DNA from: a virus | Reading direction: 5' to 3' (one strand) | Virus record (IMG/VR): IMGVR_UViG_3300009509_000015 | Span: 1-64,000 of that record | Length of the DNA stretch: 64,000 nucleotides | Shown: positions 16,516-26,200 of the stretch, piece by piece | How the letters are laid out: each line of letters opens with the position of its first letter | Numbering within the stretch: the stretch's first letter is position 1 | Notes under the pieces: model-generated | The model's input: only the letters and a program-made list of their open reading frames with translations | Told to the model about the DNA's origin: nothing | Databases searched by the model: none | Position numbers and translations under genes: made by a program

Positions 16516-16890
16516 ATGAGTATCTCAAACTTTCTTGAAAACGAACTGCTAGACACTGCTTTAGCAACAGGCGCATACAGCACAGCAAACGTGTATGTAT
16601 CTGTCCACACTGCTGACCCTGGAGAAACAGGAGCTAGTGAGGTAACTGGTGGTGGCTATGGTCGTCAAGGCCCTACTACCTTCTCTGCTGCTGCTTCTGG
16701 CACAACTTCCAACACAGCACAGATCGACTTCACAAACATGCCTGCTGTAACTGCCACACACATTGGTTTGTGGGATGCTGCAACTGCTGGTAACTTCTTG
16801 TGGGGTGGTGCTCTAACTTCTAGCAAGACGCTAAATGGTGGAGACACTTTCCGCATTGCTGCTACAGATTTGGACGTTTCTCTAGACTAA
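16516..16890 (+). CDS. small virion fibre/structural protein
   Basis: SNFLENELLD...VSVHTADPGETGASEVTGGGYGRQ...HIGLWDAATAGNFL, a widespread phage structural family. Confidence 0.75.
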   Translation: MSISNFLENELLDTALATGAYSTANVYVSVHTADPGETGASEVTGGGYGRQGPTTFSAAASGTTSNTAQIDFTNMPAVTATHIGLWDAATAGNFLWGGALTSSKTLNGGDTFRIAATDLDVSLD

Positions 16891-16979: not shown

Positions 16980-19673
16980 ATGACCTTAGCGCAACCCTAT
17001 TGGCGGTTTAGAAATGATAATTATGGCTTAAACGTAGATAACGGGTGGTTAGCAGCCATAAATACTGCCCCAAGTTCACTAGATATGGGGCAGCAATTTC
17101 GTTTGCGAATAGAAGTTGCAGAAACTGCTGGTACTTCTACCACAGATGGCTTTAAACTACAAGTAAAAGTAAATGCAGGCTCGTGGAATGACTGTGGTAC
17201 ACAGTCTAATGGTAGTAATACTGCTGTAATTGTTACTAACTCATATCAATACGCTGATCAAGATGCAACAACTAACTTATTATCTGGTTCTTCAGAAACA
17301 TTTGAAGCTGGTGAAGGTTTATACGACGATAACCTTACAGCCTCACACACCCTACAAAACGAGCATACTGAATTTGAGTGGGCGCTATTAACCCTAAAGA
17401 ACTATTATGACTTCGCTGTTTTAGCAGACGGAGACACAATATATTTAAGAGTTGTTAGGGATGATGGTACTGCTCTTGATAGCTACCAAGATATTTCATA
17501 TACAGTTAATGAGCCTGCTGGTTTTATTGGTGGTACATTTGTAGAAAGCGCACATTCATTAGGCCCAATTCAAGACAGCAACGGAAACCTATACTTTTTT
17601 GGTGAGCACAACTCACAGAACAACCCAACAAATAACAACGAACCATGTATGTGGAAGTCTACTGATGATGGTGTAACTTGGGATGAAGTAGACGGTACTA
17701 ACAGACCTGTAGGTTCTGACTTTGAATCTGCTGACATGCAAGTTATCAACGATATTATTTATATAGCACAGCATAGAGGTAGTGCTGGTATCAGGCTACA
17801 TGTTTTCAACATGAGTGCTGCTTCTAGTAACCAAGATACATGGACAACAACAGACGAAGTAGTAGATAGTTCAACTCCAGAAGCAGACCAAGCAGTAGCA
17901 TTAGCCGTTCTTTCTGATGGAGATATGTGGTGCTTTTACAGAACTACAGTAAGCAGTTACGAAAGCATAGTTTATAAACGTCGCACATCTGGATCATGGG
18001 GATCGAGAAACACACTAGACACACAGGCAACTACGAACTTTACCTGGGTAGCTTGTGTTGTTGGCGAGAGCAACCTTACACACGTTTTCTACCAAGAAAT
18101 CACTAACGGTACTGGTAATATCTGGCATAGATCATTGTCAAGTGGTGGCACATTATCTGGTAGGGAAAGCATTTCTACTGCATCTGGCACAAACAACAAC
18201 AACTCAAAAGGTATTGCCAAACCTTTATATTGGGATGACGCTGGTGATGAAATTATTTTTGTTGTTTACCGTGAAAGTGATAACGATGCGTGGTCACGTA
18301 CCATTACAAACGACGGTACTCCAAGCTCAGCTACAGGCCCAATAAACACCTATTCTATGGATCGTTCTTTAGGTGGTAGCGCCCAAGCAGCCATGCAATT
18401 AGTAGGTGATGGTACTGGAAATGCTTGGTTAATTTATCTAGACAATGTTAACCAACACCCGTACTTACTTGAGTATGTTTATGGTACTGGTTGGGGAAGT
18501 GAGATAACACTAAGCAGTACATTAACAGCAAACTTTCAACAAATTGGTCATTACACTATTTCAAATGGAGATGAGGTCGTTGGTTATGTACTAGAAACTC
18601 ACCCATATTGGGATACAGCAGGTGCTTATGGTGACGATGGCTTGATGTGGTACTACAGCTATGTCTTAGTGCCTGGAGGAATAGCTTCGTTATCTGGTAC
18701 AGGATCATTAAGTGCAATTGGATCAGTTATTGCTGGTTTTGCTACAGTTACTGGAGCAGCAGCCTTAACAGGTACAGGTACATTAAGCGCAACAGGACTG
18801 CAAATACAGCCTAGACAACCAGTATTACTAGATACAGTTACTAGTGAGGCTAATGGAGTCTCACTAACAAGTGCCACAATAACACCACAACCAAACTCTT
18901 TATTAATAGTAGTAGTTACTAATGCACATGGAAGCTCTCCAATAGGGTGGTCTACGTGTTCCGACACTCTTACAGGAACAGGCTCGTGGACTAGAAATGC
19001 TGATATAGATGATAATCAGTCAAACAACTATGGTATAGCTGTTTGGACAGCGCAATGTGGAGCAACCCCAGGTAGTGGAACAGTAACACCAACATGGACT
19101 AATAGCACATCCAACAGAAAAGTAATGTTTGTATTTGAAGTACCTTTTGGTTTTGATACAACTACACCAATAAGACAAACAAAAACTGGATCAAATGCTA
19201 CAGCAACACCATCATTAACATTTGATAATACCCCTCTTGCTTCTTCAACGGTTTTTGGTGCTATAGGTTCTAAAAGTGATCCTGACTCAGTTATTACGCC
19301 AGGAACTGGCTTTACTGAAGTAGCTGAAGACGTTAGTGGTGTGTCTAGTCCGACAAATACAGGACAAGCAGAGTATGACTTAACACCTGTAGATGGGGTA
19401 GTAGATTGGTCTGGTGCTGGAACTCTTAATAATGTATTTTTAGCTATTGAAATACAAGAAGCTGCTGATGAAGTTGGGGCAGCAGCTTTAACTGGAACAG
19501 GTACATTGTCAGGAGCAGGAATTGGCATAGCACCAAGCGCCGTAGCTATGACAGGTACAGGTACGCTAAACGCAATTGGTAAACAACTATTATGGCCTTT
19601 CTCTGATGACTTCACAGGATCAAATGATGATCCTTGGGCAGCAGGAAAGTGGACAACGGGCGCAAGCCCATAA
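16980..19673 (+). CDS. large virion fibre protein with BNR/propeller-like region and SGTGTL repeats
   Basis: KSTDDGVTW Asp-box; Ser/Thr/Gly-rich repeats. Confidence 0.7.
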   Translation: MTLAQPYWRFRNDNYGLNVDNGWLAAINTAPSSLDMGQQFRLRIEVAETAGTSTTDGFKLQVKVNAGSWNDCGTQSNGSNTAVIVTNSYQYADQDATTNLLSGSSETFEAGEGLYDDNLTASHTLQNEHTEFEWALLTLKNYYDFAVLADGDTIYLRVVRDDGTALDSYQDISYTVNEPAGFIGGTFVESAHSLGPIQDSNGNLYFFGEHNSQNNPTNNNEPCMWKSTDDGVTWDEVDGTNRPVGSDFESADMQVINDIIYIAQHRGSAGIRLHVFNMSAASSNQDTWTTTDEVVDSSTPEADQAVALAVLSDGDMWCFYRTTVSSYESIVYKRRTSGSWGSRNTLDTQATTNFTWVACVVGESNLTHVFYQEITNGTGNIWHRSLSSGGTLSGRESISTASGTNNNNSKGIAKPLYWDDAGDEIIFVVYRESDNDAWSRTITNDGTPSSATGPINTYSMDRSLGGSAQAAMQLVGDGTGNAWLIYLDNVNQHPYLLEYVYGTGWGSEITLSSTLTANFQQIGHYTISNGDEVVGYVLETHPYWDTAGAYGDDGLMWYYSYVLVPGGIASLSGTGSLSAIGSVIAGFATVTGAAALTGTGTLSATGLQIQPRQPVLLDTVTSEANGVSLTSATITPQPNSLLIVVVTNAHGSSPIGWSTCSDTLTGTGSWTRNADIDDNQSNNYGIAVWTAQCGATPGSGTVTPTWTNSTSNRKVMFVFEVPFGFDTTTPIRQTKTGSNATATPSLTFDNTPLASSTVFGAIGSKSDPDSVITPGTGFTEVAEDVSGVSSPTNTGQAEYDLTPVDGVVDWSGAGTLNNVFLAIEIQEAADEVGAAALTGTGTLSGAGIGIAPSAVAMTGTGTLNAIGKQLLWPFSDDFTGSNDDPWAAGKWTTGASP

Positions 19674-19681
19674 GGTGATAT

Positions 19682-22600
19682 ATGACTTGGGCAGTAGATA
19701 CCTCAACTCAGGGTACATATGGAACTAGTAACCCTAATACACTAAGCCACACATGTTCAGCATCTACTAAGTTGCTGGTGCTGGCTATATTTGTCAATGG
19801 TACAACTGCCAGGACAGGAGGAGCACCAACCTACAATGGTACTCCTATGACTGATAGTGGTCAAGGTTTCGTTTTCTTATCTGGTGGTGAGGCTGGTGTT
19901 GAAGTATGGTATTTAATAGAACCTGATACTGGAAGTAGCTATACTGTTAGTGTTCCTAATACGGGGGCAGTAAACTGTGACTTATCTGTAACATCATTTG
20001 AAGCTACTAATAATGCTGCTTTTGATAACTCAAATAGTGCGTCTGCTGATTCAGGAACTTGGAGTGTATCAGTAACTGTTTCCAACAACAACTGTTTAAT
20101 GTTCGGTGCGGTTGGATCAGGCGAACGTGACACGCCTACTGCTGGAACAAACTATACTCTCATCCATACTTATGACGCAGGAAACCAAGTTTGGGGATCA
20201 GAGTATGACCTTGATGCGGGTAGTTCAGGGAGTATTACAGTAGATTTCACCCCTGCTCGTGCTGATGACTGGGGCTTAATCGGTATAGGCTTCTATGAAA
20301 CAACAACAGCTACTGTAACAGGTGCTGCTGCACTAACTGGTACTGGTTCTTTATCTGCTATTGGAAAAGGTATAGCAAGTTCTGCTGCTGCTCTATCAGG
20401 AACAGGAACAATTACTAATGTTCCAGCTTATGCTATTACTAGTTCTGCTGGAGCTTTATCTGGAACTGGTACGCTATCAGCAATAGGGTTCAGGTTAATT
20501 ACTGGTGTAGCTGCACTATCTGGTACAGGCACGCTATCAGCAATAGGTGCTAGAGTAGCATTGGGAGTAGCTGCATTATCTGGCACAGGTACATTATCTG
20601 CTGCTGGCTATATAGTATTTCCATCAGAAGTAACAATACAAAATAACCAAGGTAGACTATCATTTGCTGATAGTGCTCAAGCATATGCTAGAGCTATATC
20701 TACTATGGCAGATCAATCTAATGCAGAACTTACAGCTAAGTTTACTTTTGGTGATCTTGTTTCTGAAGGTTTACTAAGATTTCATCTACGTGGTTCAGGA
20801 GACTGGGCAGACTGGCAAACACCTACAACAGCCTACGAAGTAGAGATTGCCAACACTGGTGACTGGAAAGTTTATAGGATTCAAAGTGGTAGCCGTACAC
20901 AAATAGGCACTACACAAACTTGGACTTCCACAACAGAACAACACTCTATTAAATTTCAAGTAGTAGGAACAGATATACGTGCTAAAGTATGGCGCACAAT
21001 TGACTCAGAACCTGGGTGGCAGAAAGATATTGACGACTCTACCAGTGGATTTACTACAGCAGGTACATTACAGCTAGGCTATTTCCGTGTAGCTGGATCA
21101 CATTATGTTGATCTTGATGATGTTTCTGTGCAATCTCCAGAATCTGTAGAATTTGGTGTTGCTGCCCTAACGGGTACAGGTACTTTGTCTACATCTGGAC
21201 TAGGCATAGCTTATGGTACAGCAGCAATATCTGGAACAGGTACGCTAACAGCTAAGTATGCTCATATACCACTTACAGACTTAATATATTGGCTAGACTT
21301 TTCTGATCAGACTGCTATATGGAAAACTTCTACAGAACGTATAGGTGCAGATAATGACACAATCTATGAAATAAAAGACAAGTCTGGCAATAACTATGGT
21401 GCAACACAAGCAACAGAAGGACTAAGACCTACTTGGAAAACTAATATACAAAATGGCCTTGCAATGTCTTTGTGGAATCCAGCTACTACTACAAACATGC
21501 GTGGGCCTTATGGAGACATGAGTAGTGTTTTACCAACAAATACAGGTACAGCTTTTGTTGTACTCATCCAAGATGGAACAAATGCAAATAACACTGTTAT
21601 AAACACTACTATAGCCTCTGTTGCTGGTGATAACCAGATAACAATACACGCAACATACTCAAATAACCTGTACTTTGATATGGGTGATTATGCTGGTGGT
21701 GGACGAATTTACGGAGCACAACCATCTGGTTGGGATGACGTTGCACATATCTATTCTGCATATAGATCAGGGTCTAGTGGAGAAATATCTGTTGATGGTG
21801 CTCCTATAGTTTTAACAGTGGACACTTATACAGATGACTTTGAGCCTGGAAGAGATGTTGGATATTTGTATACGATAGGAGCAAACTTCCCAGGAAACCA
21901 AATCAACTTTAAAGGATATATTGGCGAAATAATCTTTTATAAAACAAAACTTTCTGCTGCTGAAATACTACAAGTACAGAGATACCTAACAGATAAGTGG
22001 AGTGTAACATTAATACAAACTAGCGCAGCTTCTTTATCAGGCACAGGAACTCTATCAGCAACAGGATCAGCTATAGTATCTGGTGCTGCAAGTTTGACAG
22101 GAACTGGAACATTAACAAGCTCAGGTACAGGAATTGCTTCCAGCGCAGCTACATTAACAGGTACTGGTACACTAACAGGCATACCACTTGTAATATCATT
22201 TGGTGTAACTTCATTAACAGGTACTGGTACGTTATCAGCAATTGGAACATTCTTTAGTGTACAGCAAACTTCTGCTGCTTTAACGGGTACTGGTACACTA
22301 AGCGCAATAGGTTATGCAATTGCATCAAGCGCTGGTACTATGTCTGGTACTGGAACACTAACAGGCGTACCATTTGTATTATCATTCGGTGTGTCTGCTC
22401 TAACAGGTACTGGAACATTATCAGCAATAGGTAGTGCTGCTGGTATAGAACAAAGTGCTGCTACACTTTCAGGAACAGGCACATTATCAGCAATTGGTGA
22501 AGCTACTGCTTTTGGTGTGACCGCATTATCTGGCACTGGCACGTTATCGTCAGCATCATATGCTATAACATCAAGTGCTGGAGCACTTTCAGGAACAGGC

Positions 22601-23203
22601 ACATTATCAGCAATTGCTACAACACTTGGACTTAAGACTGGCGTTGTATCAATGAGTGGTACTGGTACATTATCCGCTATACCACAAGTCTTCGCAATAG
22701 CTACCGCTTCGCTAACAGGTACTGGTACGTTAACTACAGCAGCCTATCAGATAAGCATAAACAATACAGCAAGCTTGTCTGGCACTGGCACAATGTCTGT
22801 TATTGGCTCAGTAGGTGGTATAATTCAAGGTGTTGCTACACTAGATGGTACTGGTACATTATCAGCTATACCATTCGTTGTTAGCTACGCTGTAGCCACA
22901 ATGTCTGGAACGGGTACGTTAGTTAGCTCTAGCCTAATTATCGTGCCTGTAAGTGTGACAATGAGTGGTACAGGTACATTAAGTGCTACAGGATATGCAC
23001 TAGCCCTTGGCGTAGTTGCCATGACAGGAACTGGCACACTAAGCGCAATTGGCTCAGGTATAGGAATTGAGACTGGCGTAGCCTCATTAACAGGTGTAGG
23101 TACGCTAACAGCAGATTACAGATTATGGCCTTTCACAGACGATTTCACATTCAGTGATGATTCTGTTTGGGATGTAAGCAAGTGGGAAGTAACAGAGGTA
23201 TAA
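19682..23203 (+). CDS. large virion fibre protein with SGTGTL repeats and lectin/LamG-like domains
   Basis: ~19-aa A-x-L-S/T-G-T-G-T-L repeats; LIYWLDFSD...FKGYIGEIIFY...QVQRYLTDKW LamG-like domain. Confidence 0.75.
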   Translation: MTWAVDTSTQGTYGTSNPNTLSHTCSASTKLLVLAIFVNGTTARTGGAPTYNGTPMTDSGQGFVFLSGGEAGVEVWYLIEPDTGSSYTVSVPNTGAVNCDLSVTSFEATNNAAFDNSNSASADSGTWSVSVTVSNNNCLMFGAVGSGERDTPTAGTNYTLIHTYDAGNQVWGSEYDLDAGSSGSITVDFTPARADDWGLIGIGFYETTTATVTGAAALTGTGSLSAIGKGIASSAAALSGTGTITNVPAYAITSSAGALSGTGTLSAIGFRLITGVAALSGTGTLSAIGARVALGVAALSGTGTLSAAGYIVFPSEVTIQNNQGRLSFADSAQAYARAISTMADQSNAELTAKFTFGDLVSEGLLRFHLRGSGDWADWQTPTTAYEVEIANTGDWKVYRIQSGSRTQIGTTQTWTSTTEQHSIKFQVVGTDIRAKVWRTIDSEPGWQKDIDDSTSGFTTAGTLQLGYFRVAGSHYVDLDDVSVQSPESVEFGVAALTGTGTLSTSGLGIAYGTAAISGTGTLTAKYAHIPLTDLIYWLDFSDQTAIWKTSTERIGADNDTIYEIKDKSGNNYGATQATEGLRPTWKTNIQNGLAMSLWNPATTTNMRGPYGDMSSVLPTNTGTAFVVLIQDGTNANNTVINTTIASVAGDNQITIHATYSNNLYFDMGDYAGGGRIYGAQPSGWDDVAHIYSAYRSGSSGEISVDGAPIVLTVDTYTDDFEPGRDVGYLYTIGANFPGNQINFKGYIGEIIFYKTKLSAAEILQVQRYLTDKWSVTLIQTSAASLSGTGTLSATGSAIVSGAASLTGTGTLTSSGTGIASSAATLTGTGTLTGIPLVISFGVTSLTGTGTLSAIGTFFSVQQTSAALTGTGTLSAIGYAIASSAGTMSGTGTLTGVPFVLSFGVSALTGTGTLSAIGSAAGIEQSAATLSGTGTLSAIGEATAFGVTALSGTGTLSSASYAITSSAGALSGTGTLSAIATTLGLKTGVVSMSGTGTLSAIPQVFAIATASLTGTGTLTTAAYQISINNTASLSGTGTMSVIGSVGGIIQGVATLDGTGTLSAIPFVVSYAVATMSGTGTLVSSSLIIVPVSVTMSGTGTLSATGYALALGVVAMTGTGTLSAIGSGIGIETGVASLTGVGTLTADYRLWPFTDDFTFSDDSVWDVSKWEVTEV

Positions 23204-23204
23204 T

Positions 23205-26200
23205 ATGTCTTGGACTTTAGATACTTCAACTCAAGGAACTTATGGAGCAAGCGATCCTAGTACACTAACGCATACGTGTTCTAGTGCTACTCGCTTGCTA
23301 GTCCTTGTTATCTTTGTTAATGGTACTACTGCTCGTACTGGTGGTGCTCCTACTTACAACGGCTCTTCTCTAACAGATAGCGGTCAAGGATTTGTGTTTG
23401 ATACTGGCGGTGAAGCTGGTGTAGAAATATGGTACTTAATAGAACCAGATACAGGCAGTGGATATACTTTAAGCGTTCCTAATACAGGAGCAGCAAATAT
23501 TGACCTATCTGCTATGTCATTTGAGCCTACATCAGGCAACACAGCAGCATTTGATGGAGCAAATAGTGCAAGTGGTACAACACAGAACCCATCAGTATCT
23601 GTTACAATCTCAAATAACAATGCCCTAATGGTCGGTGGCTTGGGATCAGGAGATCGTGATGCCCCTACTGCTGGAACAAACTATACGCTGGTTCATACGC
23701 AGGATGCTGGAAACCAAACATGGGGAAGTGAGTACGATCTAGACGCTGGAAGTTCTGGTTCTATAACTGTATCTTTTAGCACAGCACGAGCAGACGACTG
23801 GGGCTTGATTGGTATAGGTTTCTATGAAACCGCAGGAACAACTGTTGTTACTGGAGCAGCAGCCCTAACTGGTACTGGATCGCTGTCAGCTATAGGCTCA
23901 TTCTTTTCAATAGAAACTGGTGTTGCACCACTAAGCGGAACAGGAACATTATCCGCAGCCTCTTACGCTATCGCTAGTTCTGCTGGCGCTATGTCTGGAA
24001 CTGGCACATTAAGTGCCATTGGTACACTAATTACTATATACGGGGCTGCTGCACTAACAGGTACTGGATCACTAACTGGTATAGGTTATGCAATTTCCTT
24101 TGCAGTTGCAACAATTAGTGGCACAGGTACGCTTTCTGCAATTGCAAAGGGTATAGTACAGGGGGTTGCAAATCTAACAGGCACAGGTACGCTTTCTGCA
24201 ATCGGAACTTTCTTTACACCAGCACAAACTATCACAGGAGTAGCAGCACTTTCTGGTACTGGAACATTATCTAGTAGTGGTATTGCAATTTCTATTGCAA
24301 CAGCTAGCCTATCTGGTACAGGAAGTCTAGTTGCTATTGGTGCTCCTGTAGGCGCAGATACTATAGTAGATGTTCAAACTAACCAAGGTAGAATTTACTT
24401 ACCTGATAGTGCTGGCGTATATGGGCGTGCTATAGCCAAGAGAATGTTAAAGAAAACAAACTCTGAAGTATTACTATACTTTAAGTTTGACGATACAAAC
24501 GCAGAGGGTGTGTTCCGAGTATTTATGCGTGCCTCTGGTGATTGGAACACAGCAGACAAACCTACAGATGGTTATGAAGTAGCTATCTCAAACTCTTCTG
24601 GTGGTTTAACACTTAATAAAATACAAAGTGGTACACGGTCTAATATAACAAGCGGTAGCTGGACAGCAACGACTGCTGCTCAGTGGTTGAGATTCCAAAC
24701 AAACGGTAACGCACTTAAAGTAAGAGTGTGGGCAGATGGTTCTGGTGAGCCTGGAACATGGGATATTGATACAACTAATGCAGACATTTCTACTGCTGGC
24801 GTGCTACAGGTAGGTTTCTGGAGGGTATCTGGAACACATACAATGTACATCGACAGCATCAATGTCCATGATGTTGTAGGTTTCCAGTACGGAGCAGCAG
24901 CCTTAACAGGAACTGGAACACTATCTGCTATTGGATCAGCAATTGTCTACGGAGCAGCAGCCCTTTCTGGAACGGGCACGTTAAGTTCTGCATCAACAGC
25001 AATAACATCTAGCGCTGCTAGCTTAACAGGTACAGGCACACTAACAGCTATTGGTGAAAAGGTAACAGCTATTGTTACTGGTGTTGCAAGCTTATCAGGT
25101 ACAGGTAGCCTAGCTGCTACTGGATATGCTATAGTCTCTAGCGCAGCTACATTATCTGGAACGGGCACGCTAACAGCTATTGCTACTTACTTCTCTGTTG
25201 GAGCAGCCTCACTAACTGGAACTGGTACGCTATCTGCTACTGGTTATGCTATTGTCTCTGGTGTAGCCTCACTAACTGGAACTGGTACGCTAACTGCAAT
25301 AGGCAATCCTGCTGGAGTAATCCAGGGCAATGCCAACCTAACAGGCACAGGCACACTATCTTCAAGTGCTACAGTAGTTGTCTATGCTACAGCAGCATTA
25401 AGCGGAACAGGAACATTAACTTCAGCAAGCCTAGCCATAACAAGTAGTGCTGCAAGCCTAAGCGGTAATGGTACTTTATCAGCAATTGGTACTAGGATAC
25501 AGCTTGGAGTAGTACAATTGTCAGGTACTGGTACGCTAGCTGCTGTACCATTTGTAATAGTACCTTCAGCAGCTACACTAAGCGGAACTGGCACACTAAC
25601 AAGTGCTGCTTATGCTATAACAACTGGAGCAGCATCATTAACTGGTGTGGGATCACTAATTGCTAGACCAGAGATCGAGAACTTAATCACTGGAAGGGCA
25701 GCCCTAACTGGAACTGGTACGTTATCTGCTATTGGATACGGTATAGCTTCAAGCACAGTTTCAATGAGTGGTACTGGAGTTCTAACAGGTGTAGGCTACG
25801 CAATAGCAAGCACTACAGCAAGCTTAAGTGGCAATGGAACATTAACTGCTACACCATTTGTATTATCATACGCTACAGCAGCCCTATCAGGACAAGGAAC
25901 ATTAACAGCCACTAGCTATGCTATAGCTTCTGGAGCAGCTAGCTTAACTGGACTTGGCACATTAGTTGCTAGACCAGAAGTTGAGGGATTATTAACTGGC
26001 GTTGTATCTATGACAGGTACTGGTACAATGTCTGCTATACCATTTGTACTATCTTATGGTAATGTGTCTATGTCTGGACTAGGCACACTAACTGCAAAAG
26101 CATCAGGAGAAATTACTGGAGCAGCTACCTTATCTGGTACTGGCGTACTAACCGCAAGCAGCCTAGCAATAACTTCAAGTGCTGTAACAATGAGTGGTAC

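Follow-up and report, generated by a model that had tools for sequence, protein, structure and literature searches.

The tail peptides and internal domains of three fibre genes

Only in a few phages is it understood how fibre and receptor-binding proteins from separate genes are connected. The window analyzed here, a stretch of 64,000 nucleotides, comes from a phage record of IMG/VR (G000; 75,360 bases, about 85% complete) and contains three consecutive fibre genes, P1, P2 and P3 (Table 1). P1 and P2 end in similar short peptides, and P2 and P3 each carry a homologous internal beta-rich domain. These peptides (plugs) and domains (sockets) are the two parts of a conserved split lectin-like domain, which probably serves as a plug-and-socket joint between phage fibre proteins.

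The tail peptides of P1 and P2, which are 27–28 residues long, fit the pattern WPF[ST]DDFT..W...KW and have 13 invariant positions in common. The internal domains of P2 and P3 are 41% identical, and both begin abruptly after 20-aa GxGTL repeats: socket 1 starts right after the repeats at SEVTIQNNQGRL (P2 aa 314, nt 20621) and ends in DLDDVSV, and socket 2 starts at TIVDVQTNQGRI (P3 aa ~385, nt ~24357) and ends in IDSINV. An earlier reading of the same DNA (the original prediction) had noted both the likeness of the tails and the homology of the internal domains, with their abrupt starts and their DDVSV/DSINV ends, and both observations were borne out.

Table 1. Positions of the fibre genes, their putative joint parts and accompanying features in the window
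Feature	Position	Strand	Description
P1	16980-19673	+	897 aa; plug carrier
P2	19682-23203	+	1173 aa; carries socket and plug
P3	23205-26600	+	1131 aa; socket without plug
Plug 1	19587-19670	+	LLWPFSDDFTGSNDDPWAAGKWTTGASP; C-terminal end of P1; stop 6 residues past second Trp
Plug 2	23120-23200	+	RLWPFTDDFTFSDDSVWDVSKWEVTEV; C-terminal end of P2; stop 5 residues past second Trp
Socket 1	20621-21133	+	P2 aa 314-484; predicted headless lectin-like domain, strands beta3 to last
Socket 2	24348-24872	+	P3 aa 382-556; predicted headless lectin-like domain
N-terminal domain of P2	19682-20302	+	~207 aa; common to P2, P3, P0011 and the gene downstream of the L016 plug gene
Second LamG-like domain in P2	21251-22012	+	PF13385 (Laminin_G_3); complete, outside the split
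124-aa protein	16516-16890	+	Homolog of the phage GP4 fibre-dimer ('bead') protein

The tails match the start of contiguous homologs

A profile of the two internal domains was compared with 1.8 billion representative proteins, which yielded 1996 proteins at E≤1e-3, and the domain copies of the best 150 proteins were examined. The search for unsplit homologs proposed in the original prediction gave a clear answer, since 99 of these copies have both parts contiguous: a segment with the consensus lFsDdFtG..GsaWd..skWtTt (the N-segment) stands directly in front of the domain, 3–10 residues ahead of its vDIQsNqGrL start. About ten further copies from the same 150 proteins have a degenerate N-segment. 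Fibre-like proteins that carry PF.DDFTG..DPW contiguous with the domain were also found (L015/L022, L017/L023 and L018).

A hidden Markov model (HMM) of the N-segment was built from 97 contiguous homologs and run in six frames over about 230 kb of DNA from phages, consisting of the window and further parts of the records G001–G003. There the model matched the C-terminus of P1 with an E-value of 7.5e-5 and that of P2 with 7.3e-4, and no other match was obtained in these 230 kb at E<1; over all scans made, the lowest E-values of the two were 4e-5 and 4e-4. At the level of sequence, the resemblance of the two tails to the N-segment exceeds chance. Among the best 150 proteins, what comes after a confident match to the N-segment is the remainder of the domain or else a stop codon, and the only two exceptions are weak matches (E 0.13 and 0.19). 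These results support the identification of the tails as the missing N-terminal part of a lectin-like domain of the concanavalin A (ConA)/L-type class, which is contiguous in most homologs. The claim that a tail joined to the next internal domain gives a continuous ConA/lectin-like start thus agrees with the order of the two parts in the contiguous homologs and with the fold of one of them (P0137, below).

Neither the sockets nor the contiguous homologs have a match in Pfam or NCBIfam, or a sequence match in the PDB, so this lectin-like family of about 2000 members appears to be uncurated; the plug and the socket likewise belong to no family in Pfam, PHROGs or NCBIfam. A tblastn search of GenBank phages with P2, P0002 and P0027 found no relatives beyond weak repeat matches in Methylophilales phages. 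Searches for related loci with A1, P0027 and P0004 in viral contigs and with A3 in metagenome contigs gave no matches, and A3 recovered the L003 contig alone from viral contigs.

Fold of the domain and the part that the sockets lack

The contiguous homolog P0137 (215 aa) was modelled by AlphaFold2 from a 48-sequence alignment with a predicted local distance difference test score (pLDDT) of 92.9. In this model, the N-segment forms strand beta1 (residues 2–7), a loop and strand beta2 (residues 22–27) with a pLDDT of 96–98, and its two tryptophans, W17 and W22, rank in the domain's top fifteen positions by conservation. The model superposes on ERGIC-53 with Z 19.1 and a root-mean-square deviation of 3.0 over 194 residues (1..206 on 44..268) and on legume lectins and GH16 glucanases with Z 17.5–18 each; CBM66 also superposes, and the structural alignments begin at model residue 1. 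Judged from this model, the fold is that of an L-type lectin/ConA-like domain, with a two-sheet jelly-roll sandwich extending over the whole domain. The tail had been described earlier as the first beta-strand. It does correspond to the missing N-terminal piece, but in the P0137 model this piece comprises two strands and a loop (beta1-loop-beta2).

A socket of the related phage G001 (L003:11881-13206) was modelled as well, and it superposes on CBM66 (Z 17.6) and ERGIC-53 (Z 17.3). Its alignment starts at residue 71 of ERGIC-53, compared with residue 44 for P0137, and at residues 20–23 of legume lectins, compared with residues 2–3. With this start, 18–27 residues later, the sockets lack the first 18–27 residues of the canonical fold and begin at beta3. 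In the ConA-like fold, the N- and C-terminal strands lie next to each other in one sheet, so the removal of the head should bare an edge and part of the core.

Plugs and sockets in other phages

Fourteen plugs were found in total, all at extreme C-termini, with the stop 5–9 residues past the second Trp, which marks the end of beta2; in 13 of the 14, 5–6 residues separate the second Trp from the end. Besides those of P1 and P2, three occur in G001, a 101.7-kb contig with terminal repeats that contains L003; their carriers there are two proteins of 500 aa and 73 aa and a repeat protein of 771 aa. Three more are carried by database matches (P0049, P0027 and P0011), four came from a DNA pattern scan of metagenomes (L014, L016, L019 and L020), and G002 and G003 have one each. 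The carriers have unrelated bodies with four types of repeat, and some of them are not fibre proteins.

Six-frame scans of the whole records counted as many plugs as sockets in each: two of both in G000, three of both in G001, and one of both in G002 and in G003, the last being 100% complete. The arrangement of the genes is also regular. L024 (in G002) and L025 (in G003) were retrieved by the socket pattern alone, and each of them has a plug at the end of the gene that directly precedes the socket gene; in L019, the plug gene is followed by one small gene and then by the socket gene. Socket and plug are found in one polypeptide in four lineages (P2, the 771-aa protein of G001, P0027 and P0011).

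A quick maximum-likelihood search with IQ-TREE was performed on 152 domain copies. One clade, with an SH-like approximate likelihood ratio test (SH-aLRT) value of 93, comprises all 36 headless sockets and one truncated copy. Outside it fall the 99 contiguous copies and the roughly ten whose head is degenerate, and the headless copy P0104 adjoins it at a node that the tree does not resolve. The grouping of the sockets in one clade suggests that the domain was split once, long ago, and has stayed split while its sequences diverged widely, and the scans of the further records support a split conserved in other phages with matched numbers of plugs and sockets.

Three side observations concern the proteins that carry these parts. 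The closest database relatives of the window sockets form a family of about 450 aa (P0002, P0003, P0004, P0008, P0010, P0015 and relatives), in which a headless socket stands at the C-terminus behind an unrelated N-terminal part with a conserved YPRIMGhR motif. In G001 (L003 6959-9995), two paralogous proteins of about 470 aa, which by eye only have the look of a right-handed beta-helix, are followed by an overlapping 73-aa open reading frame with little beyond a linker and a plug; its product may be an adaptor, or the frame may be a tail that became detached from the gene before it. The socket protein of L019 is headed by an N-terminal beta domain of the P1 type.

Proposed joint and the alternatives to it

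In the joint that we consider probable, P1 and P2 each end in a plug made of the first two strands and the Trp-bearing loop, and the remaining strands make up the socket inside P2 and P3. After translation, the plug hairpin would enter the headless lectin domain of another protein and complete its fold, and this insertion would tie the long repeat proteins into one fibre complex, together with accessory proteins in related phages. Gene order points to P1 docking onto P2 and P2 onto P3; physical docking, its action in trans and this pairing are the steps that we infer. The original prediction had linked three proteins of about 1000 aa head to tail. Linkage of the three is kept here, but the acceptor is set back from the N-terminus of P2 and P3 by about a third of their length, which would make the geometry tail-to-side and the assembly branched or staggered rather than a simple head-to-tail chain.

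Several results weigh against docking. When the natural 442-residue stretch of socket, repeats and plug from G001 (L003:11881-13206) was modelled as one chain with AlphaFold2, the plug remained a coil (pLDDT 39–50), the socket reached a pLDDT of 91–98 without any plug placed in it, and the linker in front of the socket formed a short strand near the position of beta2. Leu replaces the first Trp in two plugs, those of the 771-aa protein of G001 and of P0049. The rule of equal counts comes from four records, of which G000 and G001 are related phages. As AlphaFold often gives truncated domains high confidence, the model of the single chain is no proof of a self-sufficient socket, and it gives docking no support either.

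The same model bears on two other explanations. In proteins that hold both parts, the plug may close the socket of the chain that carries it, or that of a sister chain if the protein is a homo-oligomer, so that the repeats form a loop; only proteins that have a plug alone (P1) would then dock in trans, onto those with only a socket (P3). The four lineages with socket and plug in one polypeptide are in line with such closure, and the counts of 2:2 and 3:3 fit it equally well. However, AlphaFold placed no plug in the socket of its own chain, gene order sets each plug directly upstream of a socket gene, and G002, G003 and L019 have plug and socket on different proteins. We therefore regard closure in cis as unlikely. 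In these three, docking would have to be in trans, so this mode should exist in the family.

In the other explanation, an ancestral fibre gene was cut by an inserted stop, start, N-domain and repeats, and no docking takes place: the sockets would fold by themselves, and the tails would be leftovers or be kept for another role, such as a fibre end cap. Contiguous fibre relatives exist, as this requires, and the socket was modelled confidently alone, with its own linker near the beta2 site. A useless C-terminal tail, however, would be removed by an earlier stop codon, whereas the motif is kept in 14 tails at 25–45% overall divergence and always ends at the beta2 boundary. It has also moved onto unrelated carriers, and the number of plugs equals that of sockets in 4/4 records. 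A relic that does not dock is thus quite improbable. The original prediction had offered a gene interrupted by a duplicated start module as the alternative to linkage. The contiguous PF.DDFTG..DPW fibre relatives (L015, L017 and L018) are likely to represent the ancestral state, so the interruption is the probable origin of the split genes and not a competitor of docking.

Because the ends and starts of the genes abut, we also considered that the two halves are joined in one polypeptide by recoding, splicing or DNA rearrangement, and no evidence for any of the three was found. About 950 nt of conserved coding sequence, consisting of the N-domain and repeats, lie between plug and socket, and in G001 six genes, or about 6 kb, separate one plug from the nearest socket, which lies downstream of it. 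The P2 start is preceded by a Shine-Dalgarno-like AAGGTGA and the P3 start likewise by a Shine-Dalgarno-like sequence, and no logic of tandem or inverted repeats for a rearrangement was found. A TGA at 19676–19678, in the P2 frame and directly 5' of the P2 ATG, rules out a frameshift fusion of P1 and P2; frameshifting, readthrough and splicing are ruled out by the frames, stop codons and distances. Joining in one polypeptide can hardly be credited.

Repeats, the bead-like protein and the genome setting

The GxGTLsaiG repeats of 20 aa, with a strict period of 20–22 residues, number about 65 in P1–P3 (6 in P1, 25 in P2 and 34 in P3). AlphaFold models them as low-confidence hairpins (pLDDT ~60). 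They may instead fold by themselves as a solenoid, since they weakly match (E 0.004) a lipoprotein with a GSG-repeat beta-helix, 3JX8. The 124-aa protein encoded upstream of P1, which is part of the same fibre island, is homologous to GP4 gp80 and matches chain a of PDB 8JOU with an E-value of 7.8e-13 over 112 residues (3–114 on 4–130). Copies of this bead homolog are 76% identical in G001 and 47% in L007, and the bead gene occurs together with GTGTL repeats in 3/3 records (the window, G001 and L007); G002 and G003, which have other repeats in their fibres, lack the gene. Because of this co-occurrence, P1–P3 may be the ropes of a fibre of the rope-and-bead type, here in a phage that is siphovirus-like, with the bead decorating the 20-aa repeats and the ropes linked to each other by the split lectin domains.

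P1 consists of an N-terminal beta domain, a propeller-like region, short GxGTL repeats, a domain distantly similar to the N-domain of P2 and P3, and the plug. Within its N-terminal half (16980–18680), the region of about 380 aa after the beta domain has a very weak BNR/sialidase-like match (E 0.72). P3 has the N-domain, 8 repeats, the socket, 26 repeats and an acidic C-terminal tail without a plug. The N-domain of P2 and P3 has no family match in Pfam, PHROGs or NCBIfam, and the second LamG-like domain of P2 matches PF13385 weakly, below the gathering score (E 6e-5).

The phage is siphovirus-like, with a tape-measure protein, a major head protein, a portal and a DNA polymerase. The fibre island of P1–P3 lies inside an array of 32 transfer RNA genes and a transfer-messenger RNA (tmRNA) at window positions 3954–28194, on the strand opposite to the main virion module (36–64 kb). 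The tag of the tmRNA is long and ends in PQVV.

If docking is true, the joint can be recognised from sequence as a C-terminal motif paired with a headless lectin domain, and the assembly order and stoichiometry of large fibre complexes would become readable from the genomes of uncultivated phages. The work would also define the lectin-like family described above, and the two parts could serve protein engineering as a natural non-covalent peptide-domain pair. More tentatively, and with considerable doubt, plug and socket may be a portable natural tag and catcher, a connector for rope-type fibres. Any protein that gained the 27-residue tail, such as the propeller-bearing P1, the 73-aa adaptor or the 500-aa enzyme-like protein, could then be hung at defined lectin sockets along a repeat scaffold. 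The order of assembly would follow from the specificity between plugs and sockets, and a lectin site would be competent only once plugged, so that glycan binding would be gated by assembly.

Comparison with known systems

In the literature, we found no description of a split lectin joint in phage fibres. The ConA-like fold itself is known from distal tail proteins of siphophages, namely the central fibre gp20 of mycobacteriophage Douge (PDB 8ZDP, Z 18.4) and the receptor-binding domain of TM4 gp23 (PDB 9N6A, Z 17.7). These domains, presumably for glycan binding, are contiguous and terminal, and no split has been described for them.

Chaperone-usher and type V pili resemble the proposed joint in that a strand of the neighbour completes an unfinished beta-sandwich subunit, and the subunits thereby assemble non-covalently into ordered polymers. 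The pilin, however, is Ig-like, and its last strand is missing and is supplied by one N-terminal strand of the next subunit, with the help of a chaperone and an usher. Here, the fold is ConA-like and is short of two strands at its N-terminal end, a hairpin at a C-terminus would be the donor, and donor and acceptor are heterologous proteins. No chaperone or usher is known at this phage locus, although no search aimed at such genes was made; the locus therefore does not belong to the donor-strand systems of the chaperone-usher kind.

In the podophage A1002, gp39 and gp42 each hold part of the nozzle, which strand complementation makes whole again, and in the fibres of A1002, GP4 and VP1 a rope protein binds small dimers by beta-sheet augmentation (PMC13730344). 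The likeness to A1002 is that a domain is partitioned between two neighbouring genes. There, however, the split domain is the beta-propeller/platform of the nozzle and not a lectin, and no portable C-terminal plug has been described. A1002, GP4 and VP1 are podophages, whereas the phage of the window is siphovirus-like and has a tape-measure protein.

The baseplate tripod of Lactococcus phage Tuc2009 offers a solved joint between a C-terminal tail and a domain. A 25-residue C-terminal extension of BppU is a hairpin that completes one beta-sheet of BppA domain 2, and in the crystal structure the composite resembles a titin domain (PMC4742702). In the joint proposed here, likewise, one virion protein would use some 25 residues at its C-terminus to complete a domain of a second, and the composite would look like a normal single domain: the plugs stand at the extreme C-terminus and are homologous to a beta1-loop-beta2 segment, and the sockets lack those strands. 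The BppU joint hangs a carbohydrate-binding accessory protein on the adsorption device. The completed domain is small and titin/Ig-like in Tuc2009, and it has no sequence relation to the split lectin domain, which is ConA/L-type-lectin-like, has about 200 residues and is completed here by a predicted docking. Unlike in Tuc2009, the socket is embedded in long repeat proteins, there are up to three per genome, and one protein may both donate and accept. The principle of fold completion between virion proteins already has solved examples (PMC4742702, PMC13730344), which limits the surprise; the novelty lies in which fold is split, in a C-terminal tag that is portable, in the serial embedding of sockets in repeat scaffolds and in the 1:1 bookkeeping of plugs and sockets.

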